Below are positions 15,036-43,802 of a stretch of 64,000 nt of DNA, piece by piece. Origin of the DNA: a virus. Lineage: Duplodnaviria > Heunggongvirae > Uroviricota > Caudoviricetes. The notes under the pieces are model-generated. The model did no database searches. It saw only the letters and a program-made list of their open reading frames with translations, and had not been told where the DNA came from. The stretch's first letter is position 1. Every line of letters starts with the position of its first letter. The translations under genes and the position numbers were made by a program. The DNA is taken from IMG/VR virus record IMGVR_UViG_3300035208_001992, one strand, 5' to 3'.

Positions 15036-15243
15036 GTTGATCCTTTACAAGGTTGCAAGTGTGGAACAGATTCAAGCGCCTCGACAAGTCATGGTTGTCA
15101 GCAAGCATGTGCTCAACCAATGACATATCAGAGCCTGGACCTTCAGCAGCTCCAGCGTCGCGCATCACTTCCAACAACCGATTCAGTCTACGATTGCTCA
15201 TGAACATGTGCGTGCTGATGAGCTCGCGCTCTTGGGCTTCCAT
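15028..15243 (-). CDS. hypothetical small protein
   Basis: Start trimmed to MEAQERE so that it abuts the stop of the HAD gene. Confidence 0.35.
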   Translation of the reverse strand: MEAQERELISTHMFMSNRRLNRLLEVMRDAGAAEGPGSDMSLVEHMLADNHDLSRRLNLFHTCNLVKDQHG

Positions 15244-15638
15244 TACTGTTTCGGCTTCGTAAGAAAGCCTTCCTCGATCAGGAGCAATCGAAGTGCACGC
15301 CAATCAGCACATGGCCGATGAAAATTGTGGATGCGAATCAATGGGCAGCCCAATGCGTCATCGCCAATGTAGCGCTGTGCATATACCTTCGGTGATGACG
15401 TCCATGAAGACTGCTCTGGATTCTTATTCGCGTCCCAAAGCTTGATGTTGTTAGCCTTGCACCAGGCTACGGCTTGTTGCAGTTCTTCTCCGGATCGCAT
15501 TGTGCTCAAGATGAGATACACACCGGCCGCGTTCAGTTCTTGACAGACCTGAATTGCTTCAGGCGCTTCTTCACCAATGTCAGGGTACCTGTGGTCGACG
15601 AGCGTGCCGTCGAAATCCACTGCGATGATTTTCTTCAT
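15243..15638 (-). CDS. HAD-superfamily hydrolase/phosphatase
   Basis: MKKIIAVDFDGTLVD (DxDGT motif I) and later GDD. Confidence 0.6.
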   Translation of the reverse strand: MKKIIAVDFDGTLVDHRYPDIGEEAPEAIQVCQELNAAGVYLILSTMRSGEELQQAVAWCKANNIKLWDANKNPEQSSWTSSPKVYAQRYIGDDALGCPLIRIHNFHRPCADWRALRLLLIEEGFLTKPKQ

Positions 15639-16601: not shown

Positions 16602-17033
16602 CTAATGATTGAATGCGTTCTTGAGCTCAGACAATTTGATGTCGATGCGCTCATTGATTTTCGTTTCGAATGCTTGAATCTCTTCACTTATCTTTGGTAT
16701 CGTAAATGCTCGCGCTGTCACTAGCGACATTTTGCGATCATGAAGCTTGCCGATGTCTGAAGACAGCCCAAGGATGCCGATGTACAAAGCAGCTTGCTCT
16801 GTAGGCGTCATTGAAGCACCATCGAGGTAGACATTGCGTATGGCGTTCTCAGCCATCCATTTTATACCCCACTGCTTGACTGCGACGTTCTTGACATTTA
16901 CGAAATGCGCGTCTAACTTGGTATTCAAATCAGCAAGCGCATCTTCAATCACCACTATGCCAACGTCGCAGGCTTTTGTGATGAGTGATCTGACTGCGTC
17001 TTCAAAGCTCTCGTCATAGTTGAATGCTGACAT
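16602..17033 (-). CDS. hypothetical protein
   Basis: 143-aa ORF. Confidence 0.45.
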   Translation of the reverse strand: MSAFNYDESFEDAVRSLITKACDVGIVVIEDALADLNTKLDAHFVNVKNVAVKQWGIKWMAENAIRNVYLDGASMTPTEQAALYIGILGLSSDIGKLHDRKMSLVTARAFTIPKISEEIQAFETKINERIDIKLSELKNAFNH

Positions 17034-18070
17034 CAGATCTCCTCTAAGAGACGCATCTCTTCATCCCAAGCTCCGAGTATCTGCCAATAGAAACCGAAAG
17101 GTGATTGTACAAGCAGAATCGGATCGCGCTTGCCGCGCACTTCGCTTTTACGCTTGAAGTCTTCGGCTTTAGCAATCAGATAGAACACTGGTTTCTTCTC
17201 TGTGACCTTGTGCGTGAATTTCGCATACTCGGTCATGATCTCGAGAGCGTCATCAGGCATCTCGGGAATGAAATCGTCTGCAGGTCCAATCCGCAGATGC
17301 GCGTACTTCTCGAGGAGCTCTTGAACTCGATCATCATTCGTGTTCTGGAACTGGTCGAAGAATGAGCGAATCTCTTTATTGTTGCGATACTTCAGTCTAG
17401 CTTCAAGACGGATCGCAACGTCCTTGATCGTATTCGTGATGCCTCCGTTGCCACCATTGCGTACTAACCCGCCGAGAGACCGGTAGAGCTTGATCTTCTT
17501 TTCCATGTCAAGCAGATTGAATGGCGTTGGCATACGCTGCAACTCGCCAACAACAGCCTTCGGCGTGATGAGTGCATGCTCAGGTAATACTCCAGCTTCG
17601 ATCGCTTGAGTGGCCTCAGGCACTGCAATGAGTTCGTTCAACTGCGGTTCTTCTGGATTCGAGATTTCGCTTGCGATTCCGATCGTTGGCACGTTATTGA
17701 ACAATGACGCGTCAGTAGCAATCATCGACGAGTTGCCAGTCGATATATAGATCGTGCCGCCAAGAATCGAGTTCGTGGTCCCGCCAGTTGAGATGCTTGT
17801 ACCACTCATCATCCCGTACATCAAATTCTGCATCACGATCGGGTTAGCGGTTGTGATCTGGCGTTGACCTGGAGATGCATTGTGCCAATGCTTTGCTGGA
17901 ATTCTCGAATAGACAATGAAGTCTTCGAGAAAGCCAATGCCGTTCACTTGGAAGATGTCAACATCTTCTTTGATCGGCTTCAGCTTGACCTCAAACGGGA
18001 TGAGACCAAAAACTGTCTCTTTGACCCGCTTAAGATTGGCCTTGGAAAAGAATGGCTTTTTACTTGGCAT
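17033..18070 (-). CDS. hypothetical protein (Gly/Ser/Thr-rich central segment)
   Basis: 345-aa ORF with SGTSISTGGTTNSILGGTIYISTGNSS low complexity. Confidence 0.5.
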   Translation of the reverse strand: MPSKKPFFSKANLKRVKETVFGLIPFEVKLKPIKEDVDIFQVNGIGFLEDFIVYSRIPAKHWHNASPGQRQITTANPIVMQNLMYGMMSGTSISTGGTTNSILGGTIYISTGNSSMIATDASLFNNVPTIGIASEISNPEEPQLNELIAVPEATQAIEAGVLPEHALITPKAVVGELQRMPTPFNLLDMEKKIKLYRSLGGLVRNGGNGGITNTIKDVAIRLEARLKYRNNKEIRSFFDQFQNTNDDRVQELLEKYAHLRIGPADDFIPEMPDDALEIMTEYAKFTHKVTEKKPVFYLIAKAEDFKRKSEVRGKRDPILLVQSPFGFYWQILGAWDEEMRLLEEI

Positions 18071-19020: not shown

Positions 19021-20211
19021 TCATCGAATAGCTGACTTGACTAGCTGCATGAATTCCTTGCAATAGGCACTGTGGTCAAACTCTGTCACCGACTGTGACG
19101 TTCGCACTAAGTCGAGCAACAGCTGTGGAGAACGTTTGACTTGACGAAGTACTTTTGCAACGTGCTCTCGATCAGAGGCGTACAGCCACTTCGACAATGA
19201 CTTGTGATTGCCATACACGCGACGTTGTGGATCCAATGCAGAGTCGATGAGCGTCAGCGTACCAGCAAGCAAACTTTCGTATGTGCGATGCGGTACAACG
19301 TCACTATCATAGTAGATCGGGTCGCCGATCACTACGTGCGCAAGCATTCGTTGATTCTTCGCCAACATGTCGTTGTAAGGGACCATCGGACCGAATGTTG
19401 GAGGTCTTAGTCCTTCATATTCGACATGCTTGTTCTGCACCTTAGTGCTATCGAAGTCCTTGCGAGTTATCTTGCCGAACATCTCGACTGAGATGTCTTT
19501 TGGATAGCCCCAATAGAAGTCGATCATCTTCTGCGCGCGAGATCCATCGCGCATTGTGCCGCCATAGGAAAGATCGACTTCACGATCTCGCAATGGTAGC
19601 ACTGACACGCCGCCTTGCTTGAGAAAGGCATTTGAAAACGCAACGACCTTTTCAAACGCGAACGGCAGGTACTGATGGCCAGGAATGCCGTGCTTCAACT
19701 TCGATACGCGATGACTGTACCATGCCGTGTTGAACGTCTGACAGATGTAGGTCACGTCACGGCGCTTCACGACAATGTCTGACTCGCGATACTTGTTGGC
19801 CCATGACTTATAGCGAATCCAACGCCATGACTGCTGAAACGGAAGTGCTGGGTCACACAGGATGTAGACCAGAGGGCATCGAATCCTGTTGATGATGAAC
19901 ATGTTAGCAGTCTGCTTCTCGAAGTCGTCTTTACCACCGAAGTAATTCAGATTGCCGTTCATGATGATGCAGACGTCGAAATTCATTCGCCGGACTGAAT
20001 CGATGCAGTCGGCCATGTGCAGCCACTTGATGCGCTTCGAGTCGACGGCCTTGTCGCTCTCCAAGATCTTCGTGAAGACCGTGATCTCATTACGTGGATC
20101 TGCTTGGAGAAGCATGTTCATCACAGCATGCGTCTCACCAATCGAGACCTGTACGTTGCGCTCGTCACTTGGTGTGACTCGGCCACCTAATTTCAATAGT
20201 GCAATTTTCAT
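19021..20211 (-). CDS. putative glycosyltransferase (GT-B fold, GT1/GT4-like C-terminal motif)
   Basis: HVVIGDPIYYDSDVVPHRTYESLLAGTLTLID resembles the GT-B E-x7-E acceptor/donor motif. It sits next to the sugar-activation genes. Confidence 0.4.
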   Translation of the reverse strand: MKIALLKLGGRVTPSDERNVQVSIGETHAVMNMLLQADPRNEITVFTKILESDKAVDSKRIKWLHMADCIDSVRRMNFDVCIIMNGNLNYFGGKDDFEKQTANMFIINRIRCPLVYILCDPALPFQQSWRWIRYKSWANKYRESDIVVKRRDVTYICQTFNTAWYSHRVSKLKHGIPGHQYLPFAFEKVVAFSNAFLKQGGVSVLPLRDREVDLSYGGTMRDGSRAQKMIDFYWGYPKDISVEMFGKITRKDFDSTKVQNKHVEYEGLRPPTFGPMVPYNDMLAKNQRMLAHVVIGDPIYYDSDVVPHRTYESLLAGTLTLIDSALDPQRRVYGNHKSLSKWLYASDREHVAKVLRQVKRSPQLLLDLVRTSQSVTEFDHSAYCKEFMQLVKSAIR

Positions 20212-20774
20212 GGTTGCCTCATGACGTAGGTGCTCAACAAGCTGCGATCAAACAGATTGATGAGCAAGTTTTCAACAAGGTTTGTGAATGCTCCTTGATG
20301 CGGTGCAACATAGGCTGTACTCGACATCTTTGCGCGTACCAAACGCTGTAAGCATTCTGGAGCAGCGTCTGTGGTACCAATTGCGCAACAGCCTTGTCCA
20401 GGTTGTCCAACTGAATCAAAGATCTCAGCGTCTGGTAGATCATCGCCAAAGTAGAAAAAGCTGAAGTTAGACTCAGACATGCGATACCGTGTGTTGAGCC
20501 AATTTGCTTTCGACTCGTTGCCGCAATGATAAAGCTCTACGAAGTCCCCTAATTGAAGATCTTCGACGCGCTTTTGCACCACTTGAAAGCCAGGACCACC
20601 GTCGCCTGTGAGGATGATGATCTTGTCAATGATGTCGCGATGCTTCTCTTTGAGTAGCCTCATTGTGATCGAGTCATTGACGTAGAAGTGCTTTTCAGCT
20701 TTGCCAGTGGCATTGTATGTGAAGTACGGCGTCGTAAGAATGCCGTCACAATCTGTCACGATGGTGAAGCTCAT
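20208..20774 (-). CDS. KdsC-family HAD phosphatase (sugar-phosphate phosphatase)
   Basis: MSFTIVTDCDGILTTPYFTYNATGKAEKHFYVNDSITMR matches the KdsC block DVDGVLTDGxxyydxxGxexKxFnvrDG, and ILTGDGG follows. Start moved to the Met that overlaps the upstream stop as ATGA. Confidence 0.6.
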   Translation of the reverse strand: MSFTIVTDCDGILTTPYFTYNATGKAEKHFYVNDSITMRLLKEKHRDIIDKIIILTGDGGPGFQVVQKRVEDLQLGDFVELYHCGNESKANWLNTRYRMSESNFSFFYFGDDLPDAEIFDSVGQPGQGCCAIGTTDAAPECLQRLVRAKMSSTAYVAPHQGAFTNLVENLLINLFDRSLLSTYVMRQP

Positions 20775-22438
20775 TTTGTTCCTTTGTCCGCTAGGTAGAA
20801 CTTGTTTGCGAGAAGCGCACCATGGTGCAATGCTGCAAACGCCTTGATCGGATTGTTTGACGAGTACGCTGCGAGATTCAGCCAAATCAGCGCAACCCAA
20901 CGCTGACGAATGTCAGAGCTAATCACAGCGTTGATCCAAGCAAGTTGGCCATCTGAGAAGCATTCGTATTGCGGCATCTTGAAGCTAACAGACCGACCTT
21001 CAAGCGTATCGAGTTTGAAGAGCTTGGCACTGTTGAACAGATCGTAACCGCTCAAGCTGTACAAGATCTTTGCGTAGTCATAGTCGAAAAGACCCAAGAT
21101 ACCTTGATGATTGCCAAAGTACCCACGTGGGTCGATGAGTGTGATTGGCCCATTGCTGTATTGACCAGTGACTAGAGCATTTGAGAAATTGCAGTCACCG
21201 TGGATTGGCCCGATGCTGCGGTCGAAGTCTGGGCCAGACAATGCACGGTAGTACTCGAAGATCGACTCACCAAGATGCTCTGCAAGCTCGTCGATTGGCG
21301 CTGCTAGCGTCACGCCATTGACTTCGTTCACGTTCGACCTGATGTTGTCAGTGATCGACAGAGCCTTAGTGATACGATGACTGGTCTTGACTGTCGTTTC
21401 TTGACGAATATCTTTGAGCGAGTCCAAGCGTGACTGACGCGCGCTTGTCGATAGATCATGAATTGAGTGGACAGCTTTGATATGCCGTGCAACCAGAGAA
21501 ACGCGATCACGACCTGACGGGTCTGCCATGTTCAATATCGCGTTAGCGACTGTTTCGCCGTGGATGCGCTCCATCATAAACCCGTCACTGTCTGATGCGT
21601 TCAACTTGCACCAGACTTCTGCAACGCGTGGATGAGATCCTTCGCACTGAGCTATTTGCTTGTACCAATTGATCTCGCGCACGCTGAGAACTCGACCAAG
21701 TTCATTCAGTGGTCTCTTGTGCATGATCTTGCGTTCACCAATTGCATTGAATGGACGCGTGACATAGTCAGTCTCAAGTTTTGCTGTGCTTTCCAACTTG
21801 TCAATGTCGCCGACGTCTCTGAGCTCATAGCCCATCTGGCCGATGCGGAACTCGTCAAGCCTTGCGTCGTGACTCAACTGTGTGATCACGTCGACGAAGT
21901 CATCACCGTTGTTGTAGCTGAACGGCTTGAACTCTGGAACGTGATAAATGCCAACAACGTTGCCACAATTGTCGTCAAGCTTTATGACTTCGCCTGTGTT
22001 GTGACGATACCGATATCGGCATGATGCATCGTGCTGTGTGAACACTGTTGGCCTGTTAGATTCGCCAATCTGAATCTTGGATGTGAGTCGCGTGCTGAAA
22101 TAGATGTCACTCCATGTGATCAACACAGGCTTGCCATCCATCATGTCAGCTGCGCCGTGCATCAGTGCATATGCTGTACCAAATGGCTCGTCAACGTATT
22201 CGACAGAAACGTTGACCAATGGCAGATGTTCTGCAAGAAACGCTTTGATCAGCGCGATGAACGAGCTATGGCAAATGATTCTATAGTGCTTTTCGACGCC
22301 GTACGTGTCAATAATGCGTTCAAGAACTGTCTTAGATCCGATGTTCACTAAGACCTTTGGAATGCCATTCACAACCGATCCCATGCGCGTTGCGAGACCG
22401 GCTGCCACAATTATCACGCGATCAGCGTTGTCAATCAT
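20771..22438 (-). CDS. bifunctional sugar-phosphate nucleotidyltransferase (LicC/GlmU-like) / APH-choline-kinase-like kinase
   Basis: N-terminus VIIVAAGLATRMGSVVNGIPKVLVNIGSKTVLERI carries the G-x-G-T-R-(L/M) NTP-transferase signature. The C-terminal half has IHGDCNFSNALV (HGDxxxxN catalytic loop of APH/choline kinases) and a DPR(G) motif. Confidence 0.65.
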   Translation of the reverse strand: MIDNADRVIIVAAGLATRMGSVVNGIPKVLVNIGSKTVLERIIDTYGVEKHYRIICHSSFIALIKAFLAEHLPLVNVSVEYVDEPFGTAYALMHGAADMMDGKPVLITWSDIYFSTRLTSKIQIGESNRPTVFTQHDASCRYRYRHNTGEVIKLDDNCGNVVGIYHVPEFKPFSYNNGDDFVDVITQLSHDARLDEFRIGQMGYELRDVGDIDKLESTAKLETDYVTRPFNAIGERKIMHKRPLNELGRVLSVREINWYKQIAQCEGSHPRVAEVWCKLNASDSDGFMMERIHGETVANAILNMADPSGRDRVSLVARHIKAVHSIHDLSTSARQSRLDSLKDIRQETTVKTSHRITKALSITDNIRSNVNEVNGVTLAAPIDELAEHLGESIFEYYRALSGPDFDRSIGPIHGDCNFSNALVTGQYSNGPITLIDPRGYFGNHQGILGLFDYDYAKILYSLSGYDLFNSAKLFKLDTLEGRSVSFKMPQYECFSDGQLAWINAVISSDIRQRWVALIWLNLAAYSSNNPIKAFAALHHGALLANKFYLADKGTK

Positions 22439-23070
22439 TTCGATTCATCTCCGAGTTCAGAACGAAGCTTCTCGCCAAGAGAGCCATTCGGGTGGTAGCG
22501 CAAAAAGTCGCGAGGTGACCAACCAACGCGATGCGAAAGCACGACAGATATTGTATCTAACGCGCACAGAAGCGTTGTTGTCGATGACGTTGGAGCAAGT
22601 TGATACTCGTCACCTTCAACGACATCGCCGCAATGCAGTACGCGGCTGAAATGATGTTGCTGGTCAAACGAGCTATTGAGATGCAACAGCAATTGATAGA
22701 CTTCTGGCTTAATGCTCTTTATGTGCTGTGCACATGCGAGCAATTCAGCTGTCTTGCCTGACTTGGAAATGTAGATGATCGCGTCGTGCGGTCCAACAAA
22801 TCCGTAGTCGCCATGTGATGCATGAGACACGTTTAGCGCAAGACTCGGTAGTCCAATCGACACCATTGTCTCTGCGATCTTCGCTGCGATGTTAGCATTC
22901 TTGCCAACGCCAGCGATGATGATGCGATGCGAGTAGTCATTGAATCGCGAAAGCTCATCAATCACTTGTTGAAACTCGAGTGTCGTAACCATGCGTTGCA
23001 GATTCGTGATGCCTTGCAATTGGTTGTTGACGCAGTTCACTGCAAGTGCTAGTTCTTCAGCTTTTAGCAT
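22435..23070 (-). CDS. single-domain SIS sugar-phosphate isomerase, KdsD/KpsF (arabinose-5-phosphate isomerase)-like
   Basis: IIIAGVGKNANIAAKIAETMVSIG, HASHGDYGFV, YISKSGKTAELL and LAPTSSTTTLLCALD...FLRYHPNGSLGEKL parallel the KdsD blocks GMGKSGHIGRKMAATFASTG, HGDLGMV, ISNSGES and APTSSTTATL...HPGGALGRKL. No CBS domains. Start set at MLKAEEL behind a strong GGAGGAAAT SD. Confidence 0.65.
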   Translation of the reverse strand: MLKAEELALAVNCVNNQLQGITNLQRMVTTLEFQQVIDELSRFNDYSHRIIIAGVGKNANIAAKIAETMVSIGLPSLALNVSHASHGDYGFVGPHDAIIYISKSGKTAELLACAQHIKSIKPEVYQLLLHLNSSFDQQHHFSRVLHCGDVVEGDEYQLAPTSSTTTLLCALDTISVVLSHRVGWSPRDFLRYHPNGSLGEKLRSELGDESK

Positions 23071-23119
23071 ATTTCCTCCAGGCAGCCGCAAATGAGGCTG
23101 CTCATTGGAGAATTGATTT

Positions 23120-23371
23120 TTAGTCTGCACGGTCGGCAGCATCTCCATTGACGCGCGCCTCAAGCAGCTTTACTGTTGGGCCAAATTCTGGCCAATCGCT
23201 CTCAATCACGATCACACCAAGCTCTGACTTGCCGTCATGAGCGCGTCCGACGCTGATCTTGCGCATGATGACAGACAAAGCTTGACAATCAGCAGTGTTC
23301 AAGTACTTCTCTGCATCGCTACCTTTGACAACTACATATCGTGGTTCTAGTTTGAATGCTGGTTTCGCCAT
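23120..23371 (-). CDS. hypothetical protein
   Basis: 83-aa ORF with a CTATTTACAAGG upstream motif. Confidence 0.45.
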   Translation of the reverse strand: MAKPAFKLEPRYVVVKGSDAEKYLNTADCQALSVIMRKISVGRAHDGKSELGVIVIESDWPEFGPTVKLLEARVNGDAADRAD

Positions 23372-23424
23372 TGAGCCCTCTGTGGTTGTCTATTCTATTT
23401 ACAAGGCACGATGTTTACAACGCG

Positions 23425-23811
23425 TTAACATGGGTCTTCAACTGGAGTCAAGCGTCGCACAAGAATCATGAAGCCTATGTCAGGTGACTTGAAATTGATG
23501 CCAGCGTTTCCGTTCGTGCATACACTGTAATCGATTGGTGACTGACCGCTCTTAGTATACAACAGCACGGGATGCTCGAACTTGCGCATGTTGTACAACC
23601 AAGTCTTGCACGGTTCATGCACAAACTGCATTGACGCTACTTGTCCTGGAGCGCACAAGCCCAAGATTTGCGCAAAGCACTCATTGCGCAGTTGCTTGAG
23701 TTCAGCCTTTCCATATTGAGCGTCAGTGCAGTAATGCATCTTGACATCAACCCACCAATCGAGCTGGAACGCCGTGTATGCTAACGCGTTGATCGCTAAA
23801 TTGTCGATCAT
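23425..23811 (-). CDS. hypothetical protein
   Basis: 128-aa ORF. Confidence 0.45.
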   Translation of the reverse strand: MIDNLAINALAYTAFQLDWWVDVKMHYCTDAQYGKAELKQLRNECFAQILGLCAPGQVASMQFVHEPCKTWLYNMRKFEHPVLLYTKSGQSPIDYSVCTNGNAGINFKSPDIGFMILVRRLTPVEDPC

Positions 23812-24035
23812 GATCTTATCATGGTCAATACGTCGATGACCATGCCGTCAGCGTCAGCTGCTAAGTAACCAGCGCCGCCGCTCAGACACTTCATGTTATT
23901 GAACCAGTAGATTTTAGTGCCGGTTGGTTGCTTACTAAGCCAGTCATCTGTGCGCTTGCTACCTGGCTCAATTTCGACTTCTTTCAACTCACGGAAATCT
24001 TCTTTGAGCTCTGCAATATTTGACCCTCGAATCAT
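23808..24035 (-). CDS. hypothetical protein
   Basis: 75-aa ORF with a 4-nt overlap. Confidence 0.4.
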   Translation of the reverse strand: MIRGSNIAELKEDFRELKEVEIEPGSKRTDDWLSKQPTGTKIYWFNNMKCLSGGAGYLAADADGMVIDVLTMIRS

Positions 24036-24274
24036 GATTTGCCTCCAGCTGGATATTCAATGCAGTTCTTGCACCATGCCTTAGTTGCAACTTCTGAATC
24101 TAGCAACTTGATCTGATCACGATCGCGTGACGACATATGTCCATCAGCAAGCCAACGGATCGTGTAGAAATCGTAGCCGTGAATCATGTGATCGATTGCA
24201 ATGATCGCTATGGCATCAAGGTCTGTGTCTTCAACGTCTGCAATGAAGCTACCGATTTTTAGTCTCTCAGTCAT
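24032..24274 (-). CDS. hypothetical protein
   Basis: 80-aa ORF with a 4-nt overlap. Confidence 0.4.
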   Translation of the reverse strand: MTERLKIGSFIADVEDTDLDAIAIIAIDHMIHGYDFYTIRWLADGHMSSRDRDQIKLLDSEVATKAWCKNCIEYPAGGKS

Positions 24275-25548
24275 CCGAAGCGACCTCCCATGATTTGTCC
24301 AGCTGCGCCCATCCTGCTAGCAAGTTCAGTGATGGCCATGCGCAGATTGGTTACCTCACGCACAAGCACAGAGCTTGTATGAAATGGCAGAACTTCAGCT
24401 AACTGGTCAACCCAGTGCGCGTATTCTTGCTTACTCAACTGCTGAGACTTGTCGATCTCATTTTCGCTTTCTTCAAGAATGCGATTGATGATTTCGTCGT
24501 AGCCGATCTCTTTGGCTATTGCTTCAAGCACGCTGTTTTCGACGCTGAATCGATTTTGGAGATTATCGGTACCCCATGACTTGCATCGCTGATAATCGAG
24601 CGGCGACATGTATATCAACGCTGTAAACGTAGTTGCAGGCTTCACAGATTCGTCATAAATTGATGACGTCGACTTGCACATGCGAGTCTTCAAATTTGCG
24701 AGACTTTGCGTAGCTTGGACATACCCAGGCCAACGCAATCCTGAATTGAACGTTGCTTTTGATTGTGATTTATTGCTATAGTCTCCAGCATAGTCATTGC
24801 TGTTCGAATTTTGCTGATCTGCTATGATAGTTAGCAGTGAGTGCAGCACGAACGAGAGCATACTAGCATGATCTGCATAGGCAAAGTCAAATGATTCAAT
24901 CTCTTCAAGCCATGTTTTGATATGACGGCGTTGAGCTATGTAGTAAGCAACATAGCCGCTGTCATCAGTCTCCGTCGGCATGATCGAGATGAGATATTCG
25001 TCGATGACTGCTCGAGATTTTGCCACGTACTTTTCCATGTACTTGCGCATTGCTGCGTAGATCTCAGAAACGATTTGCTTTGTTACGCTGGTCGGATGCA
25101 CGTAGCGACGCGTTATCCCAACATCGTACTTTAGAGTAATGAACTGATAAGAATCACCTGGCAGACACTTCAATGAAGTGCTGTTGCTATGAGACAACGA
25201 CAATGGCGCGCATCCGTCGCTGTTGTTAGACGCGGCGAACATCTGATCTATGAATGACAATTCAGGAGTTTCGTACTCGTAAACTGGTACTGCAGCGCAT
25301 GACTGCTGGATATTGTTGCTAAGGCAAGAAACAGCAGCCTCGGTCAGCAGTGACTCGTAAAAGTGATAATGACTGTCACTGCTTGAATCATGATAGAGGC
25401 GTTCGCCAAAGATAGCTGGACGGCTCATTTTCTTTTGTACAGCACGCACGATGTCACGAACAACAAGTGCGTTGATCGTTGCTTGGCCTTGTGTAGTCAT
25501 GAATGATTGCATTGATCTCTCCTTCAGCCGCCAAAGCGGCTTATACAA
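24271..25548 (-). CDS. hypothetical protein
   Basis: 425-aa ORF; no motif recognised. Confidence 0.5.
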   Translation of the reverse strand: MYKPLWRLKERSMQSFMTTQGQATINALVVRDIVRAVQKKMSRPAIFGERLYHDSSSDSHYHFYESLLTEAAVSCLSNNIQQSCAAVPVYEYETPELSFIDQMFAASNNSDGCAPLSLSHSNSTSLKCLPGDSYQFITLKYDVGITRRYVHPTSVTKQIVSEIYAAMRKYMEKYVAKSRAVIDEYLISIMPTETDDSGYVAYYIAQRRHIKTWLEEIESFDFAYADHASMLSFVLHSLLTIIADQQNSNSNDYAGDYSNKSQSKATFNSGLRWPGYVQATQSLANLKTRMCKSTSSIYDESVKPATTFTALIYMSPLDYQRCKSWGTDNLQNRFSVENSVLEAIAKEIGYDEIINRILEESENEIDKSQQLSKQEYAHWVDQLAEVLPFHTSSVLVREVTNLRMAITELASRMGAAGQIMGGRFG

Positions 25549-26249
25549 GCGTGTGATCTGAAGTAGCTGTTCTCAGCGTTACTTGCTGCTTTCAATTCTT
25601 CTGGCATACGCTGAGGAAGATGACAGTATTTGGACTGCGACCGATGAATCATGAAGTTGCATTCTGCGCTGCAGCAGCGTGAGTCATTGCGCATTACTGA
25701 AATCGCGTCACGCGTCACAGCATTGACGCATAGCACTGTTTTGTGATAGTCAACTACGAACTGCGCGATGTTTTCAAGCATCACGGTTATTGCATAGTGA
25801 TTCTCTGTAGTTGAACCTACCGTGCCAACAAATTGCACTACGAGCCTGTGAAGATCGCGCGCCAGTTTAGTTGCGTCATTGATGTTCTGCGCTAGCATCA
25901 ACTGCTCGGTCATTGTTTCGATCTTGCTCTGTAGACGCTTGACGCGAAGCATGACAAACGTCAAAGCAGCAGTAATGAACAACGTAAGCACAATTGAGAT
26001 CACGTTAGTTAGCAGAATGCTGTAGCCATGAGCAACGAATCTGAAGCCTACGCTAAAAATCGTCAATGCGAACAATGCCACGATTGACGCGTGCAGCAAT
26101 CTGACGTTGTACAAGCCACGAGCATGCTGCAAGCGCGGTGTCATAAGTGACTTGACTGAACGCAAACTGGATACACAATCTGTCACATATATTGCTCTTA
26201 TGATCGATGTATTTAGGTCGTCATTACTTGTATTCATGCTCATATTCAA
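25524..26249 (-). CDS. 2-TM membrane protein with cytoplasmic domain
   Basis: Two hydrophobic helices (LLHASIVALFALTIFSVGF and ILLTNVISIVLTLFITAALTFVML) followed by a ~140-aa soluble domain. Confidence 0.5.
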   Translation of the reverse strand: MNMSMNTSNDDLNTSIIRAIYVTDCVSSLRSVKSLMTPRLQHARGLYNVRLLHASIVALFALTIFSVGFRFVAHGYSILLTNVISIVLTLFITAALTFVMLRVKRLQSKIETMTEQLMLAQNINDATKLARDLHRLVVQFVGTVGSTTENHYAITVMLENIAQFVVDYHKTVLCVNAVTRDAISVMRNDSRCCSAECNFMIHRSQSKYCHLPQRMPEELKAASNAENSYFRSHACISRFGG

Positions 26250-26809
26250 CCAATCTTCCGTTTGACAATAAGCCGTTGAAATTCTGGAGTGTAGCCGAAG
26301 CCATGCTGACGGACAGAAAAGAAACTGGTCAAGTGCTTGATCACGTACAAGTGACGCGAGCTTATGATCAATGATGCTTCTTCAGTCCCGGTACTTGCTT
26401 TTGCCTGTTCTTGCAACGAACTAAGTACGTCAATCACTTCGTGCGGCGTGCCTGATACGTCAAGACGATCTTTGATTGAGCCGATCAGCGACGAAACGTC
26501 GAGATAGTCACTACCGATTTCCTGCTTCAACTTTGACGCTATATAGCGCACAACGAAGTGATCAATTGCAATCGCGATCATGAACGCATATGCAGTAAGC
26601 TGCATTGCATAGCCATGCGTCTTCGTGAGTGACATGCCACTTATCAATGCTGTGGCAATGCTGCCTAAGCCAAGGCTAAAATATGTGATGATTATGCAAA
26701 TTGCGCGAATGGTGCAGCCACGATGCGTCATGGAGAAAATGCCTGTCGACATCACATCATAGAACGACGAAGCGGTCAGATCTTTGCGTTGCTCAAGCTT
26801 GTAATTCAT
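26246..26809 (-). CDS. 2-TM membrane protein with cytoplasmic domain (same architecture as 25524..26249)
   Basis: Helices TIRAICIIITYFSLGLGSIATALI and AMQLTAYAFMIAIAI followed by a soluble domain. Confidence 0.5.
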   Translation of the reverse strand: MNYKLEQRKDLTASSFYDVMSTGIFSMTHRGCTIRAICIIITYFSLGLGSIATALISGMSLTKTHGYAMQLTAYAFMIAIAIDHFVVRYIASKLKQEIGSDYLDVSSLIGSIKDRLDVSGTPHEVIDVLSSLQEQAKASTGTEEASLIISSRHLYVIKHLTSFFSVRQHGFGYTPEFQRLIVKRKIG

Positions 26810-27483
26810 GCGACTGCTTTCCCTTCCAAAATAGTGTCAATCACAATCCCACAATATTCAGGCGATTCAAGCATCACTCTTAAGCGTTTGACACGCTCAG
26901 TCTCTTTAGGACTGTCCATGATGCCTTTGCGCTGTTCAGCTTGCCAGATCACGTGCAGCAACGCATTCGACTTCTCTTTGCCGCCGCATGTTAGCAATTT
27001 CACTAAAAGTGCTTTGTAGTCTGGCTCGATTCCAGCAGTTGTATTTCCTGGAGTCAGCTGCACAACACCAGGCGACACGAGGTCGAAGAAGACATCAGCG
27101 CTTGACAGCATATATTCGTCAATGAGCTCGACGACTCCGTTGTTGGTGCCAACAACGCGATATGACAGATTAGGAATCAGAACGCCGTGTGAGTCGGTAC
27201 TAAATTGCGCAGTGACGAAATGGTCTTGAAAGAACCGATGACCTCTGTCACCAATGTTTGTGAACTCAAGCATAGCGTTAGCGCCAGAAACGACTTCCTT
27301 CCTGTAAGGAGCGTCCTCAGCGTCGAGCTTTGCCAAGTAAGCTGGATCGACACGTTGGATGATGTTTGTCGCAATGCGTTTACGAGTCGTGATCATTGTG
27401 TGGCTCCAAGTAGTTTGAGTGCTTTGTCCAAAGCTGATGACAAGCAGTCGCCAAGACCACTGCGTGAACAGATACGTATACAA
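26806..27483 (-). CDS. hypothetical protein
   Basis: 225-aa ORF. Confidence 0.45.
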   Translation of the reverse strand: MYTYLFTQWSWRLLVISFGQSTQTTWSHTMITTRKRIATNIIQRVDPAYLAKLDAEDAPYRKEVVSGANAMLEFTNIGDRGHRFFQDHFVTAQFSTDSHGVLIPNLSYRVVGTNNGVVELIDEYMLSSADVFFDLVSPGVVQLTPGNTTAGIEPDYKALLVKLLTCGGKEKSNALLHVIWQAEQRKGIMDSPKETERVKRLRVMLESPEYCGIVIDTILEGKAVA

Positions 27484-27860
27484 TGACTGTCCAAATCAGA
27501 ATCATGCGTGTAGTGCACGGCCTCATCGTCAATGATCAGGTAGTGCTTCACGTCTGGATGCGTATCTAACCAAGCGCGAGTTGCTTTACCACGATGTATG
27601 ATCTCAGGATCGAGCGTGCCGATGATGCATACATGAGATCGCGAATCGCTTCTTAGCAAAAGCTGTTTGATCGCTTCAAGCGGCATAGTGAAACGAGCAG
27701 CAGAACATATCACAATCTGCGCGTTGCTTGACTCAGCCAATTCATCAAGCACAGCTATGCTCTTTGGATCGAGCTCAGGCATGCTATGGATTCGAGTTGA
27801 CAAGTAGCTTATCGGATCTAGCACACCGCCGATATCGAGAAATATGACAGGTTGTGACAT
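27393..27860 (-). CDS. hypothetical protein, weak HAD-like features
   Basis: VIFLDIGGVL and LIIDDEAV; motif I is not canonical (DIGG rather than DxDG). Confidence 0.35.
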   Translation of the reverse strand: MSQPVIFLDIGGVLDPISYLSTRIHSMPELDPKSIAVLDELAESSNAQIVICSAARFTMPLEAIKQLLLRSDSRSHVCIIGTLDPEIIHRGKATRAWLDTHPDVKHYLIIDDEAVHYTHDSDLDSHCIRICSRSGLGDCLSSALDKALKLLGATQ

Positions 27861-37133: not shown

Positions 37134-37680
37134 ATCATCATCAAGATTGCGATCTAGGTTGTTCGCATCGGTGATGAAGTTCTTGAGATTGCGCAGATAG
37201 TCACGTAGCTTGGCGTTGTCTATGTCGTTTCCTTATCTGTAAATGTTGCCGAACCAAGTTACCACATTCAGCTGTCCTGTTTCGCGGCTGTTAAGGCCCA
37301 GGAGTTTTGCTCGTGTCTCTGAATCGCCTTTGAGACTCAAGCTTGAAACGTGCGGCGATCACGTTAGATTACGAGTGGCGCTGCTGCGTTTTGCAACAAG
37401 CTTATGTCTTGGACGTATGGCCGTGAGGCCAAGGTAAAGTATCCCGCAAGGGACCACTCAATAGAAGTGCGCGCTCCAAGCACTGGAACAAGAACGCGCT
37501 GCTAGTTCATCCTGCGATCAGCAATGCAGGATCAATGCCTTGGCAAGGCATGACTGCATCTACTGGCAACGTTGAGTCTCACCTGCTGAAACCCAACTGA
37601 ATGTATGCATACTAACGTAAGAACTGGCAGTGTTGTCTCACGTACGTAAACTAGGTTTGCTCCGCTTACCGAGCGGCATG

Positions 37681-38001
37681 TTATAGATATTGGTTGATCA
37701 TGCTTTCGATCTTGTCCTTGGGCAAAACACCGATGAGCTGATTCACCACTTCGCCGTTCTTGAACATGAGCAATGTTGGGATAGAACGGACACCGAACTT
37801 GGCAGCGATGTTCTCGTTGCCGTCGGTATTGAGCTTGCAGATTTTGACTTTGCCGTCATATTGAGCGGACAAAGCTTCGATAGCCGGATTCAGCATCTTG
37901 CAAGGACCGCACCATGGAGCCCAAAAGTCAACCATGACAAGATCTGTGCTTTTGATGACGTCGTCGAATGATTCTGCTGTCAGCACAATAATGTTGCTCA
38001 T
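37681..38001 (-). CDS. trx: thioredoxin
   Basis: WAPWCGPCK active site. Start set at MSNIIVLTAESFDD behind a GGAG SD, which gives a canonical ~106-aa thioredoxin. Confidence 0.85.
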   Translation of the reverse strand: MSNIIVLTAESFDDVIKSTDLVMVDFWAPWCGPCKMLNPAIEALSAQYDGKVKICKLNTDGNENIAAKFGVRSIPTLLMFKNGEVVNQLIGVLPKDKIESMINQYL

Positions 38002-38207
38002 GAGAACTCCGTTGAAGATTTTGGTTGACCAAGTCGCCACGTCAACCTGCTGGATGTTACTGGCGTCTCTATGCTTTATCGGTATGCCCCACACGCCGAC
38101 AAGCATTTCCAGGTTTTCAAGAGCCTGCTAAGCAAGCTCTTGCGTTCGCTGCGCAACAACGAATGCCCCAACGACACCCAACCCCAACGCAGCGAAACAT
38201 TCCCTGA

Positions 38208-38279
38208 CGGATTCGAACCGCCGCGTGCGCTATGAGATAGCGCCGTCCTGACCTCTAGACGAAGGGAACAAAGTGTTGC
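38208..38279 (-). tRNA. tRNA-Glu-like (CTC), divergent copy
   Basis: Begins GTTCCCTTCGTCTAGAGGTCAGGAC like tRNA-Glu. The anticodon loop ATCTCAT is unusual and the T-stem has one mismatch. Confidence 0.5.
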
Positions 38280-38612
38280 CGACCAAAGCTTAGTACATCG
38301 ACATGCTGGAGATCAAAACTGCCCTACTTCTGACGTTGCGCAACATCAGGTATCGGACTCCAGGTTTTTCGCGAAAGCGCACCAGAGCGACTAATAACGC
38401 GACATTCCCACGTTGAGGTTGCCTAAGCCTCATCTGCTTTCGCAGGTCTTGTGCCACTAAGCCATCCGGAACGTAAAGGTACTAGTCCAATCATCGCCCT
38501 TGTACTCGTATCCGGTAGACTAAAGCAGCGGCTCACGTTCGGCCTCGATCAGTGTGGTCAAATGGACATGCCCACCAATGTATCCGAGTTATGCATAAAC
38601 GAAACGTGGAAG

Positions 38613-38685
38613 CATTCCCTAGGGGAGTCGAACCCCTGCACCCGCCGTGAGAGGGCGGTGTCCTAGGCCACTAGACGAAGGGAAC
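38613..38685 (-). tRNA. tRNA-Glu (CTC)
   Basis: GTTCCCTTCGTCTAGTGGCCTAGGACACCGCC-CTCTCAC-GGCGG...GGGGTTCGACTCCCC, close to the E. coli tRNA-Glu backbone. An upstream CAATTTACAAAGTTTGC motif lies at 38711. Confidence 0.75.
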
Positions 38686-38750
38686 GTTGTGTGCCTTATC
38701 AGCACAAGATCAATTTACAAAGTTTGCATTGTTTACACTAGATTAACGCG

Positions 38751-39320
38751 CTAATATAGTCCAGTTTGAACTTGCCAAAAGTCTGGAACGCCATCGATCT
38801 CATCTCCGGCACGATTGAAGTACCACTCGTTGTATGTCTCTGGTTGAGCCACGTTTGTGTCAGCCTCACCCATGATGTCTTCGAATGATCGCTCTGTCTC
38901 AAGCTGTTCAGCAACTTTGCTGTCGTCAAACATTGTCTTCTGACGCTTGTCGAGTTCTTCCTTGATGAACAAGTGGAACCAGTAGGCACCACCACGAACG
39001 ATACCAGAGATTCGACCAAAGCCTGTCGTGAAGCCTGTGCAAGTTACCGCGAACGCTGCTGCGTAATCACTAACGTCACATTTGCCGTCCGGGAATTCTG
39101 CCATAAGCCCATTTAGCTTTATGCGCTCATCGTCAATGGCTTTGGCTTGCTCATGTGATGTCTTGATCAATTTGGAAGCCATGTCTTTGGCTGTTTCAAG
39201 ATCTGGCGCTTCGAACGCTGTGAACTTAGCGCCATCGAATTCTTTGCCAGTGTCGTTCTTGAAGTATTCCATGCCAATCGTCCAGATCACGATTTGGGTC
39301 CTTGATTTTGATCGAGCCAT
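38751..39320 (-). CDS. hypothetical protein
   Basis: 189-aa ORF. Confidence 0.45.
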   Translation of the reverse strand: MARSKSRTQIVIWTIGMEYFKNDTGKEFDGAKFTAFEAPDLETAKDMASKLIKTSHEQAKAIDDERIKLNGLMAEFPDGKCDVSDYAAAFAVTCTGFTTGFGRISGIVRGGAYWFHLFIKEELDKRQKTMFDDSKVAEQLETERSFEDIMGEADTNVAQPETYNEWYFNRAGDEIDGVPDFWQVQTGLY

Positions 39321-39499
39321 GCTTCATGATCGATCTTATGTTGGAAGTTGACGTACGACGATCGTGCTTTATCGAAGTCCCAGCATATCATCACTGTTAG
39401 TATAGCAACGCAAGCTGCTAGTCCAAGCAACACGAACAAAAGCGTCATGGTTGTGATCTCTGAACTTGCGGAAACTTGTACGTGGTCTCGATTGAGCAT
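39287..39499 (-). CDS. small membrane protein
   Basis: 70 aa with TM segment TLLFVLLGLAACVAILTVMICW. Confidence 0.35.
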   Translation of the reverse strand: MLNRDHVQVSASSEITTMTLLFVLLGLAACVAILTVMICWDFDKARSSYVNFQHKIDHEAWLDQNQGPKS

Positions 39500-39807
39500 T
39501 CCATTGGTGCGAGATCAGAGTTAATGGCACAAGTTGGTCCAGGATATATTGGGATGTCTCCTGGCACTGGACCTATTTGCCATGGCCATGTCCAAGGAAG
39601 CGTTGGAACAAATCGAGGTTGAGGCACTGGACTGAGTTGAGGCTCAAGCCAACGTTTCAACTCAACAAGAAGATCGAATGCTTCGGCATGCGTCAACGCG
39701 ACTATTTGATCTTTCACGCGTATCGACATCGTGAGACTCAACTTGTCATCGTTTGACATACGTTCTCCTAAATTGGTGATGCCGCCCAGCGGGATTTGAA
39801 CCCGCAA
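39445..39807 (-). CDS. hypothetical protein
   Basis: 120-aa ORF. Confidence 0.4.
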   Translation of the reverse strand: MRVQIPLGGITNLGERMSNDDKLSLTMSIRVKDQIVALTHAEAFDLLVELKRWLEPQLSPVPQPRFVPTLPWTWPWQIGPVPGDIPIYPGPTCAINSDLAPMECSIETTYKFPQVQRSQP

Positions 39808-39895
39808 CCACCTATGCGCTCACGAAACGCTGCAAGGCTCGCACTTGATCCGTGACTAACAAGGGTAGCTCTACCGTTGAGCTTATGGGCAACGT
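39781..39895 (-). tRNA. atypical ~112-nt tRNA-like gene (intron-containing tRNA, or pseudo-tRNA / other structured RNA)
   Basis: Clear 3-prime half GGTGGTTGCGGGTTCAAATCCCGCTGGGCGG. The 5-prime acceptor/D-arm-like stretch is TTGCCCATAAGCTCAACGGTAGAGC. About 40 extra nt lie where the anticodon arm should be. Confidence 0.35.
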
Positions 39896-41646: not shown

Positions 41647-41928
41647 GTTTGTCCTTGTAGAAAGCGAATTGGTGCAGTGCATCGTTATTGCAGTTTCTCG
41701 CACTGCTGCAGTTTGACCCAGTTGATTAGCAGGAACTAAAAGCTTCCTCGCGTTTAGCGCCCTGTCATCGACGCTAACTTACCTGCATCTCCGATTGTCG
41801 AGCAATCGTCTCACTGTGATTCGCGCTGGCACCGGCAGGATACCGATGTTGGCACTACAAGAACATGGTGGAAATTGTAGTGCTGCAACCTCACGCGTTT
41901 GAGCGCGGCTATTAACCAACGCTCAAAG

Positions 41929-42465: not shown

Positions 42466-42491
42466 AGCGTTCTCCTAGTGTGAGTTGTGAA

Positions 42492-42565: not shown

Positions 42566-42570
42566 GGTAA

Positions 42571-43770: not shown

Positions 43771-43802
43771 TTCGATTCTCCTAAGTTGTGAATTGGAAGC
43801 AA

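Follow-up and report, generated by a model that had tools for sequence, protein, structure and literature searches.

In a 64,000-nucleotide stretch of DNA (the window) from a ~306-kb tRNA-rich phage without a close cultured relative, we have identified four coupled genes that probably constitute a self-contained cassette for activating D-arabinose and transferring it to a pyrimidine in DNA, shielding the phage genome from nucleases. The family of each encoded protein, the conserved catalytic motifs, the operon structure and the conservation of the cassette are established. We regard the cassette as a new variation on an established type of anti-restriction DNA modification, differing in its glycosyltransferase and phosphatase families.

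An ORF check confirmed four adjacent co-oriented genes on the minus strand where the first-pass annotation had placed them, and all three junctions are 4-bp ATGA stop/start overlaps. The order, comprising a SIS isomerase, a nucleotidyltransferase/kinase fusion, a HAD phosphatase and a glycosyltransferase (GT), is identical in two diverged relatives (L003 and L006/L008), so the arrangement is conserved and chance adjacency is excluded. The GTs of these relatives are 83% and 69% identical to the one described here, and three related lineages of the phage keep the cassette. Its GC content equals that of the window (0.493), and many of the ORFs beside it have no detectable family.

In the proposed pathway, the SIS enzyme would convert ribulose-5-phosphate to arabinose-5-phosphate, the fusion's APH-type kinase domain, at its C-terminus, would phosphorylate C1 to give arabinose-1,5-bisphosphate, the HAD would take off the 5-phosphate, and the N-terminal nucleotidyltransferase domain would combine arabinose-1-phosphate with UTP into UDP-arabinose. 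The GT would then flip a hydroxyl-bearing pyrimidine, most likely 5-hydroxymethylcytosine (5hmC) or alternatively 5-hydroxycytosine (5hoC), out of duplex DNA and attach arabinose with anomeric inversion, and the product would guard the phage DNA against host nucleases. The same series of intermediates, from ribulose-5-phosphate to UDP-arabinose, and the roles of the enzymes are published for RB69, DLP3 and HY126 (PMC13326640; PMC6024577). The proposal of this arabinose module dates back to 2018 (PMC6024577), and PMC13326640 states that the module was biochemically characterised in phage HY126. From the enzyme logic of isomerase, 1-kinase, phosphatase and nucleotidyltransferase beside a transferase, the first-pass annotation had suggested a route via arabinose-5-phosphate to a nucleotide-activated pentose that might decorate phage DNA. 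The present analysis supports this logic, the route and the suggested destination; the transferase itself is a relative of T4 beta-glucosyltransferase (BGT).

The most likely start of the isomerase gene (22435-23070) is an ATG at 23070, giving 211 aa, whereas the longest ORF reaches back to 23163. This ATG is preceded by GGAGGAAAT, with a GGAGG Shine-Dalgarno sequence, and the resulting N-terminus agrees with those of relatives. In its longest form (22435-23163) the ORF matches Pfam SIS (9.6e-08) and phrog_5670, "arabinose 5-phosphate isomerase" (6.6e-64). NCBIfam KpsF/GutQ (TIGR00393 kpsF) matches at 1.6e-27 over model positions 2-154 of 268; since this match is confined to the SIS half of the model, the CBS pair is absent, and the protein is a single domain of KpsF/KdsD type, as first annotated. 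PDB entries 5uqi (2.3e-22), 3etn (3.7e-18) and KdsD 2xhz (1.1e-13) match the protein, and a GxGKS-type loop, an HGD motif and a C-terminal HPxGxLG are in line with them. The protein, which is 41.4% identical to RB69 gp55 and 44.6% to PspYZU05 gp76, is predicted to be a D-arabinose-5-phosphate isomerase of the RB69 gp55 type.

The AfhE-like fusion gene (20771-22438) encodes a sugar-1-phosphate nucleotidyltransferase domain at its N-terminus (21740-22438, residues ~1-233) and an APH/choline-kinase-type sugar kinase domain at its C-terminus (20771-21739, residues ~234-555 and the stop codon), which upholds the fusion called in the first annotation. The whole protein matches phrog_4098 (1.2e-83). 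Residues 8-116 match Pfam NTP_transf_3 (3.2e-06), the N-terminal domains of NCBIfam Arch_glmU, HddC and GlmU match the same end (2e-08 to 3e-07), and the domain can be aligned with residues 3-218 of RB69 ORF053c; the nucleotidyltransferase signature G14-L-x-T17-R18 ... P27-K28 is unchanged in all four homologues. Pfam APH reaches only 0.004, below its cut-off, on residues 254-436, and the kinase domain can be aligned with residues 5-287 of RB69 ORF052c (E 1.7e-25), with a Brenner motif H413-G-D415-x-N417..N420 and D436-P-R-G invariant. Over ~95% of its length the fusion is 29-32% identical to RB69 ORF053c:052c and PspYZU05 gp75, both of AfhE type. Homology to RB69 and HY126 enzymes points to the isomerase, 1-kinase and nucleotidyltransferase steps; with characterised AfhE-type enzymes sharing only ~30% identity with the fusion, sugar and nucleotide specificity are given here as predictions.

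The HAD gene (20208-20774), whose start was corrected to the ATG at 20774, encodes 188 aa of KdsC type, in agreement with the first annotation. Its longest form (20208-20900) matches the NCBIfam KDN-9-P phosphatase NF058599 (6.4e-10) and KdsC TIGR01670 (4.6e-08), both below the curated cut-offs, as well as PDB KdsC 1j8d (8.1e-06), with DxDG and GDDxxD motifs in line. The relatives' KdsC-type HADs are 54-61% identical to it. It does not resemble RB69 gp51 (hhalign probability 0.1%) and gave zero tblastn matches across 50,697 phage records. KdsC enzymes usually take the terminal phosphate off Kdo-8-P, whose phosphorylated end comes from arabinose-5-phosphate. From its position, its coupling and this family chemistry, the protein is predicted to be the arabinose-1,5-bisphosphate 5-phosphatase; its place directly after the fusion gene is the slot of the AfhF-type HAD in Straboviridae. 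Fusion homologues are everywhere accompanied by a HAD phosphatase of varying subfamily, of AfhF type in Straboviridae and of HAD_2 type in other viral loci, where it is a neighbour or is itself fused, either to the fusion gene or to SIS; this supports an interchangeable but real pathway step.

Downstream of the cassette, at a distance of 3.4 kb, lies a second, small HAD phosphatase of 131 aa (15243-15638, minus strand). It matches phrog_1238 (1.1e-27), to which RB69 gp51 (AfhF) also belongs (1.9e-42), the gp51 family alignment (hhalign probability 90%, E 1.5e-06) and PDB 2obb (1.1e-17), and relatives keep it at 50-66% identity. Its closest homologues (48-53%) belong to Ackermannviridae, crAss-like, Lak and Herelleviridae phages, none of which is among the genera where fusion homologues were seen. 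Its membership of the system is uncertain: it may replace or supplement the KdsC-type enzyme, and with a HAD of the AfhF PHROG so near, either of the two may serve the pathway.

The GT (19021-20211) belongs to the T4 BGT family (GT63) and has a GT-B fold. It matches Pfam T4-Gluco-transf (PF09198; 3.1e-12, 46.9 bits, cut-off 27), phrog_7922 beta-glucosyltransferase (1.4e-39) and PDB 1bgt (7.4e-28). In a Foldseek search of the PDB with its AlphaFold model (pLDDT 89, pTM 0.88), the best six matches were all T4 BGT (4.7e-24, TM 0.78/0.87), followed by the next GT-B fold at 8e-09. The catalytic Asp and the UDP-binding residues of T4 BGT are conserved: E26, D120, R221, R225, R309 and E312 correspond to T4 E22, D100, R191, R195, R269 and E272, and are invariant across 120 homologues. 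We predict an inverting DNA base glycosyltransferase fed UDP-pentose by the three upstream genes, adjacency being what suggests this donor.

A scan for dCMP hydroxymethylase, proposed in the first-pass annotation, returned no thymidylate-synthase homologue in the window or its ~16 kb of flanks. More broadly, neither a thymidylate-synthase-family enzyme nor a dNMP kinase or dCTPase turned up in the 64-kb window, the 8.5 kb before it (L046), the ~8 kb after it (L049) or the relatives' loci; the search covered ~80 kb of the ~306-kb phage. With no such enzyme found in these ~80 kb, we infer the acceptor only from the genomic company of other family members. In every beta-GT context examined (T4, Acinetobacter phage AB1I1M-1 and jumbo-phage loci L004 and L005), a gp42-type dCMP hydroxymethylase lies <6 kb from the beta-GT, and these enzymes keep D169 and carry N177D. 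As other members adjoin such 5hmC synthases, arabosyl-5hmC is a plausible product. It is rather unlikely that the same sugar is instead attached to 5hoC, as in RB69, DLP3 and HY126, yielding the known arabinosyl-5hoC with swapped transferase and phosphatase families. The SIS and fusion genes do accompany a D169N thymidylate-synthase homologue at all examined Straboviridae loci, D169N being the 5hodCMP synthase signature (PMC13326640), and UDP-arabinose has so far been linked to 5hoC alone; however, the transferase here comes from the beta-GT family, and the D169N homologue is absent from the ~80 kb and from the relatives' loci.

It is improbable that the GT keeps host UDP-glucose as its donor while the upstream trio feeds a separate acceptor pathway, with adjacency reflecting no more than operonic co-expression of two functions related to DNA or glycans. 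Every known UDP-binding and catalytic residue of T4 BGT is conserved, and we know of no demonstrated pentose use in the family. The GT is nevertheless ATGA-coupled to the HAD gene within a four-gene block kept in three lineages, and no further glycosyltransferase able to use the NDP-sugar was detected among ~75 window ORFs. Its clade is moreover only 37% identical to a tight jumbo-phage clade (64% identical internally) and carries 30 specific substitutions relative to the 117 jumbo-phage homologues; several of these adjoin residues R221 and Y300-R309 of the donor site, a pattern that would fit a changed donor.

That the cassette acts on something other than DNA (for example host lipopolysaccharide or capsule, a virion protein or some other glycan), in the manner of giant-virus NDP-sugar genes, seems very improbable. 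Fusion homologues adjoin sulfotransferase and NAD-dependent epimerase genes in giant-virus-binned IMG/VR contigs, where the modules probably modify a glycan, and a base-modifying enzyme was not found near the cassette; yet the GT is specifically a T4 beta-GT relative by the Foldseek ranking, the sole characterised member of that family works on DNA, and homologues of the GT are located within modules for nucleotide modification. A Kdo-like or other higher sugar completed by host or unannotated enzymes is scarcely credible: the isomerase is in the KdsD family, the phosphatase finds its nearest matches among Kdo-8-P and KDN-9-P phosphatases and numerous neighbouring ORFs lack a detectable family, but CBS domains are missing, scores fall far under equivalog cut-offs, Pfam or PHROGs scans of ~75 window ORFs gave no KdsA, KdsB (as first annotated) or NeuB match, and the cassette encodes a homologue of the UDP-arabinose enzyme, the 1-kinase/nucleotidyltransferase fusion, whereas activation of Kdo to CMP-Kdo involves no 1-kinase.

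The preferred arabinose cassette most resembles the Straboviridae arabinosyl-5hoC system (RB69 gp55, gp52:53, gp51, gp48, gp46:47 and gp3; HY126 AfhE/AfhF; DLP3 gp76-83). The first-pass annotation considered its enzymes distinct from those of arabinosylating T4-like phages. This holds only for the phosphatase subfamily (KdsC-type here, phrog_1238/1xpj-like AfhF type there) and the transferase family (inverting GT63 here, GT4-like Aat there), and is contradicted by the homologous isomerase (41-45%) and bifunctional fusion (29-32% over its full length) and by the shared order isomerase, fusion, HAD; the predicted UDP-arabinose and the purpose, DNA hypermodification, are also common to both. The cassette further lacks the adjoining D169N homologue, nucleotide kinase and gp50-like gene, and the Straboviridae are ~170-kb T4-like phages. 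The arabinosylated hmC named for such phages in the first-pass annotation has since been revised in RB69 to arabinosyl-5-hydroxycytosine (PMC13326640).

With T4 BGT, which acts with gp42 to form glucosyl-5hmC, the GT shares family, fold, catalytic Asp100, UDP-binding Arg/Glu and an expected post-replicative, base-flipping mode of DNA glycosylation, but identity is only 24%, and T4 draws on host UDP-glucose without sugar-activation genes, whereas the GT here is joined to an arabinose-activation operon with no gp42 homologue nearby. RsoM2USA-like modules (beta-GT homologue, gp42-type ThyA homologue, CofD, NTP_transf_3, guanylate kinase and PRA-PH) also belong to very large phages and hold the closest GT homologues beyond the window clade (33-39%), but they lack SIS, fusion and KdsC-like genes and place base-modifying genes beside the GT, the opposite of the arrangement here. 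NDP-heptose synthesis (GmhA, HldE/HddA, GmhB, HldE-C/HddC) follows the same chemical logic of ketose-phosphate isomerase, anomeric kinase giving a 1,n-bisphosphate, distal-phosphate HAD and nucleotidyltransferase, but with a GmhA-type rather than a KpsF/KdsD-type isomerase, a PfkB or GHMP rather than an APH-type kinase and a GmhB-type rather than a KdsC-type phosphatase, the substrate of the cassette being a pentose.

On the minus strand, 19021-23163 holds four co-oriented ORFs, and with corrected starts all three junctions between them are 4-bp ATGA stop/start overlaps, an arrangement typical of translational coupling. The SIS isomerase gene comes first, with a longest ORF of 22435-23163 and a most likely start at the ATG at 23070, behind GGAGGAAAT, which gives a protein of 211 aa, equal in length to RB69 gp55. 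It is followed by the fusion gene (20771-22438; 555 aa), encoding an N-terminal nucleotidyltransferase and a C-terminal APH/choline-kinase-like domain, by a gene that profile searches place with KdsC/KDN-9-P phosphatases of the HAD superfamily (ORF 20208-20900, starting at the ATG at 20774; 188 aa), and by the glycosyltransferase gene (19021-20211). The GC content of the cassette equals that of the window (0.493), and a promoter and terminator scan around it returned counts no better than those from shuffled sequence.

The same four genes occur in the same order in two diverged relatives, on 200-kb and 76-kb Logan contigs (loci L003 and L006/L008). Identities to the window proteins in L003 and L006, respectively, are 69% and 83% for the transferase, 69% and 81% for the isomerase, 54% and 61% for the HAD protein and 43% and 44% for the fusion. 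The fusion is thus far more diverged across this three-lineage clade than its neighbors, which could reflect relaxed or diversifying selection, or recombinational replacement. In L003, an M16 peptidase gene abuts the isomerase gene and a 4.7-kb block of the window (23120-27860) is missing; in the window, this minus-strand block places about nine ORFs between an M16-peptidase-like gene (27875-29062) and the isomerase gene, including a HAD_SAK_2 domain protein (27393-27860; 2.3e-17) of a family linked to RNA repair. The contigs of relatives L003, L006, L007 and L008 terminate at or near the cassette. Close downstream of the transferase gene, a 345-aa ORF (17033-18070, minus strand) has 62-70% identity across all three lineages; neither Pfam nor PHROGs gave a match for it, and a single-sequence AlphaFold prediction reached a pLDDT of 35, too low to be of use.

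The isomerase was placed by Pfam (SIS, 9.6e-08), NCBIfam (TIGR00393, 1.6e-27) and PHROGs (phrog_5670, ‘arabinose 5-phosphate isomerase’, 6.6e-64). Its TIGR00393 score of 96.8 bits lies below the cut-off of 203.7, and the match covers positions 2-154 of 268, with the protein ending after the SIS domain. Because the TIGR00393 match is confined to the SIS half, the protein is without CBS domains; it lacks the tandem CBS pair and the above-cut-off score expected of KdsD/KpsF (TIGR00393, NF008141), and is more like 3etn and 5uqi, isomerases with a single domain. Among phage proteins, it is 41.4% identical to RB69 gp55 over 210 aa (E 4e-59) and 45% identical to PspYZU05 gp76.

The fusion falls in phrog_4098 (1.2e-83) and has homologues in 368 phage records by tblastn, the matches listed being T4-like Straboviridae and large Vibrio phages. 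Its best match is Pseudomonas phage PspYZU05 gp75 (32% identity, E 1.4e-60), and it aligns over its full length with RB69 ORF053c/ORF052c at 29% identity. The nucleotidyltransferase signature G-L-x-T-R ... P-K and the kinase signatures H-G-D-x-N-x-x-N and D-P-R-G are all intact and invariant in the alignment of homologues, and the nucleotidyltransferase domain is weakly HddC-like (8.7e-08, far under the cut-off). By homology, the protein would be a counterpart of AfhE and RB69 gp52:53, the predicted arabinose-5-phosphate (A5P) 1-kinase/UDP-arabinose pyrophosphorylase.

The RB69 genes were proposed to serve UDP-arabinose synthesis by Thomas et al. 2018 (PMC6024577). Lee et al. 2026 (PMC13326640), citing biochemistry of phage HY126 AfhE and AfhF, set out a route from ribulose-5-phosphate (Ru5P) to Araf5P by gp55, to Araf-1,5-P2 by the kinase domain, to Araf-1-P by the HAD protein gp51 (AfhF) and to UDP-Araf by the nucleotidyltransferase domain. 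By analogy, the SIS isomerase would convert Ru5P to A5P, the kinase domain of the fusion would convert this to Ara-1,5-P2, the KdsC-type HAD would release Ara-1-P, and the nucleotidyltransferase domain would form UDP-Ara; the first, second and fourth steps lean on homology to the RB69/HY126 enzymes, and the third on where the gene lies, on its translational coupling and on the chemistry of the family. The first-pass annotation had read the four genes as a sugar-activation cluster, possibly leading through A5P to an activated pentose. Profile searches agree with its family placement of the four ORFs, and homology to the RB69/HY126 genes, with their assigned UDP-arabinose route, supports its pathway logic and its guess of arabinose. 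It had further held the enzyme set to be distinct from that of arabinosylating T4-like phages, which is so for the phosphatase and the transferase but not for the isomerase and the fusion, both of which have homologues in RB69 and PspYZU05. Two other sugar pathways fit poorly: NDP-heptose synthesis (GmhA/HldE/GmhB/HddC) works alike but uses a GmhA-type SIS, a PfkB or GHMP kinase and a GmhB-type HAD where the cassette has KpsF-, APH- and KdsC-type proteins, and in the Kdo pathway KdsC has KdsA and KdsB as partners, whereas no KdsA or KdsB family match was found in the window, as the first-pass annotation had also noted, and the cassette HAD scores below the KdsC cut-off.

The phosphatase is the first point at which the cassette departs from RB69, HY126 and DLP3. 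In RB69 and PspYZU05 the gene order is isomerase, fusion, small HAD, the HAD after the fusion gene being of the AfhF type, whereas the cassette carries a KdsC-type protein there. The latter aligns with PDB 1j8d (8e-06), including DxDG and GDDxxD (HAD motifs I and IV), although its TIGR01670 (KdsC) score of 33.1 bits is under the family cut-off of 106.95. It had no BLAST match to RB69 gp51 or PspYZU05 gp74, an hhalign probability of 0.1% against gp51, no PHROG match and no tblastn match in 50,697 phage genomes. KdsC takes the terminal phosphate off Kdo-8-P, and the phosphorylated end of Kdo-8-P comes from A5P; a KdsC-type HAD is therefore chemically reasonable as an arabinose-1,5-bisphosphate 5-phosphatase.

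A competing candidate for this step lies 3.4 kb from the cassette, where a 131-aa minimal HAD (15243-15638, minus strand; PDB 2obb, 1e-17) is kept in the relatives. It falls in phrog_1238 (1.1e-27) together with RB69 gp51 (1.9e-42), and hhalign against the gp51 family alignment gave a probability of 90%; that the KdsC-like HAD is a non-orthologous replacement for AfhF is accordingly put forward only tentatively. However, the nearest homologues of the 131-aa protein (48-53%) are from Ackermannviridae, crAss-like, Lak and Herelleviridae phages, whose genera are absent from the fusion-holding genera among the matches listed. Since its homologues lie outside the genera with fusion homologues, we class it among the generic small HADs and count it only as a rival candidate, favoring the in-operon KdsC-type HAD as the pathway phosphatase. 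Phrog_1238 is labelled ‘phosphoheptose isomerase’; for a family of phosphatases, this is apparently a misannotation that has been propagated.

Fusion homologues at other IMG/VR loci, several of them giant-virus-binned (GVMAG), are accompanied by a HAD_2-type phosphatase, which adjoins the fusion homologue in L024 (9995-12908), is fused N-terminally to it in L033 (8879-12506; 891 aa) and is fused to the SIS protein in L028 (9819-12493; 399 aa). Because a HAD_2 protein is adjacent or fused at these loci, the phosphatase step is constant and the HAD in charge of it interchangeable. Further IMG/VR loci with fusion homologues include L017, L031 and L034-L036, and a sulfotransferase and an NAD-dependent epimerase/dehydratase are among the neighbors of such homologues. 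The isomerase, kinase/nucleotidyltransferase and HAD module thus seems to serve purposes other than phage DNA modification as well.

The second departure is the transferase. Arabinosylation in RB69, HY126 and DLP3 uses a GT4-like Aat (RB69 gp46:47, DLP3 gp79), whereas the sole glycosyltransferase of the cassette belongs to the T4 beta-glucosyltransferase family (PF09198, GT63) by sequence, fold and key residues. It scores 46.9 bits against the curated PF09198 cut-off of 27, falls in phrog_7922 (1.4e-39) and matches T4 beta-glucosyltransferase (BGT) by sequence (PDB 1bgt, 7.4e-28). The six best Foldseek matches of its AlphaFold model (pLDDT 89, pTM 0.88) in the PDB are all T4 BGT (E 4.7e-24, TM 0.78/0.87), the next GT-B fold following at 8e-09. 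Residues E26, D120, R221, R225, R309 and E312 correspond to T4 E22, D100, R191, R195, R269 and E272 and are invariant in 120 homologues; we take T4 D100 to be the catalytic base, and Glu22, Arg191, Arg195, Arg269 and Glu272 to be UDP-binding. A tblastn search with gp46 and gp47 found no RB69-type arabinosyltransferase in the window; PspYZU05 gp72 was searched against the IMG/VR loci only.

Among 5.8 billion proteins, the transferase clade comprises only three clusters (100%, 83% and 69% identity), followed by matches at 33-39% that form a tight family (~64% identity among themselves), many of them on 230-370 kb contigs. The best match in a cultured phage is Ralstonia phage RsoM2USA (37%), and scans of IMG/VR and JGI metagenomes gave no close relative. 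Neither a beta-GT nor a KdsC-like HAD was present at any of the 33 IMG/VR loci with fusion homologues. PspYZU05, which has the nearest fusion homologue, likewise has neither, and Acinetobacter phage AB1I1M-1, considered as a case of fusion plus beta-GT, lacks a fusion homologue over the 40 kb surrounding its beta-GT and is a phage with gp42 and the transferase.

From its family and operon linkage, the GT63 enzyme would move arabinose, with inversion, onto a flipped-out hydroxylated or hydroxymethylated cytosine of the phage DNA. The most serious alternatives concern the two partners of this reaction. One is that the transferase still acts on UDP-glucose, as its conserved BGT catalytic and UDP-binding residues would allow. 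Against this, a transferase coupled to a pentose-activation operon would be expected to use a donor other than UDP-glucose. The window clade also differs from its homologues by fixed substitutions at 30 positions, some beside R221 and between Y300 and R309 (among them residues 21-22, 222, 301, 305 and 308), which are compatible with a changed donor without proving one.

The other, equally among the most serious, is that the acceptor is 5-hydroxycytosine (5hoC). According to PMC13326640, this base, not 5-hydroxymethylcytosine (5hmC), is the acceptor in RB69 and DLP3, where a D169N thymidylate-synthase homologue makes it. Our search for base-modifying genes covered ~80 kb of the ~306-kb phage, namely the window and its flanks on Logan contigs (L046, 8.5 kb before the window start at 99.98% identity, and L049, ~8 kb past the window end), together with the relatives' loci L003, L006, L007, L044 and L047. 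None of these sequences yielded a thymidylate-synthase homologue, a dNMP kinase or a dCTPase; the D169N-type 5hodCMP synthase was likewise absent from this ~80 kb and the relatives' loci, and a gp42-type dCMP hydroxymethylase from the ~80 kb. A gp42-type enzyme does lie within 6 kb of the beta-GT in all contexts examined (T4, AB1I1M-1, L004 and L005). When aligned, they retain D169 and carry N177D, and RB69 gp48 and PspYZU05 gp73 have D169N (numbering follows E. coli ThyA; the alignment recovers the published D169N of RB69 gp48). Since the other beta-GT family members examined adjoin a gp42-type dCMP hydroxymethylase, we favor 5hmC, which is probably, if not by far, the acceptor; 5hoC we consider rather unlikely, and what probability remains is split between 5hmU and targets other than DNA.

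With 5hmC as the acceptor, we tentatively propose, as a possibility somewhat short of even, that this clade makes true arabinosyl-5-hydroxymethylcytosine by means of a GT63 enzyme switched from UDP-glucose to UDP-arabinofuranose and a 5hmC pathway of the gp42 type, whose genes would lie in another part of the genome. RB69 was once wrongly credited with this structure, which has since been revised (PMC13326640), and no documented case of it was found in the literature searched. Inverting transfer by a GT63 enzyme would possibly give an anomeric linkage differing from that of the first arabinose of RB69 and DLP3.

The sugar-activation core of isomerase and fusion is a known system. Searches of 50,697 phage genomes, of IMG/VR and of the literature gave no other case in which it is joined to a KdsC-type phosphatase and a T4 beta-GT-family transferase; here the three occur together in a ~306-kb phage of an unrelated lineage, with no base-modifying gene in the ~80 kb seen. 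DNA arabinosylation was previously regarded as belonging to T4-like Straboviridae and as relying on a single, fixed set of enzymes. The cassette presents the arabinose-activating core as a mobile module that this lineage has combined with another kind of phosphatase and with the scaffold of the classic T4 beta-glucosyltransferase, which amounts to a natural experiment in donor-sugar switching within GT63. The cassette possibly yields a new hypermodified base, which would widen the DNA glycosylation chemistries that face restriction, CRISPR and type IV defence; if the base is 5hmC, the transferase would also be the first pentose-transferring member of GT63. As a compact and self-sufficient four-gene operon that would need no host UDP-arabinose, the cassette could serve enzymatic 5hmC/5hoC labelling or the making of glycosylated DNA.

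The nearest outgroup of the transferase lies in a conserved module of RsoM2USA-like jumbo phages (L004, 3678-15554; L005, 916-11303), comprising a gp42-type dCMP hydroxymethylase, a helicase, the beta-GT homologue, a 609-649-aa CofD-domain protein, a guanylate-kinase-like protein and a PRA-PH (MazG-like) protein, with an NTP_transf_3 protein in L005 only and a SIR2 protein in L004. The CofD/NTP_transf_3 pair (CofC/CofD-like), lying beside a DNA glycosyltransferase, hints that 5hmC is hypermodified further in a way as yet undescribed.

The source of the window is a very large phage without a close cultured relative. A protein 100% identical to the transferase comes from a 305,891-bp contig, the cassette has no megablast match among 50,697 phage genomes, and the clamp loader encoded in the window has at most 32% identity to any of these genomes. 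Most window ORFs have no family in Pfam or PHROGs scans; UvsX-like, Mre11-like, SbcC-like and clamp-loader genes are encoded, as are 16 tRNA genes, which cluster at 34969-47897 on the minus strand (His, Pro, Leu x2, Asn, Tyr, Ala, Glu x2, Thr, Met, Ile, Lys, Gln, Ser x2) with small ORFs, an HNH endonuclease (35230-35778) and a thioredoxin (37681-38106) interspersed. Between the clamp-loader and SbcC-like genes, a minus-strand gene for a SAM-dependent methyltransferase (60962-61810; Methyltransf_25/23/11), whose start overlaps the clamp-loader stop by 4 bp judging by the coordinates (61807-61810), could encode another nucleic-acid modification enzyme. A metallo-beta-lactamase-fold protein (50341-51186, minus strand) matches the Pfam anti-Pycsar family Apyc1 (51.4 bits against a cut-off of 50) and may be a cyclic-nucleotide-degrading counter-defence protein; a protein with an Rv2179c-like 3'-5' exoribonuclease domain is encoded right after it (51183-51932). 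Small phosphopantetheine-attachment (acyl-carrier-like) proteins are encoded both in the window (53860-54345, minus strand) and in L003 (1181-1438).
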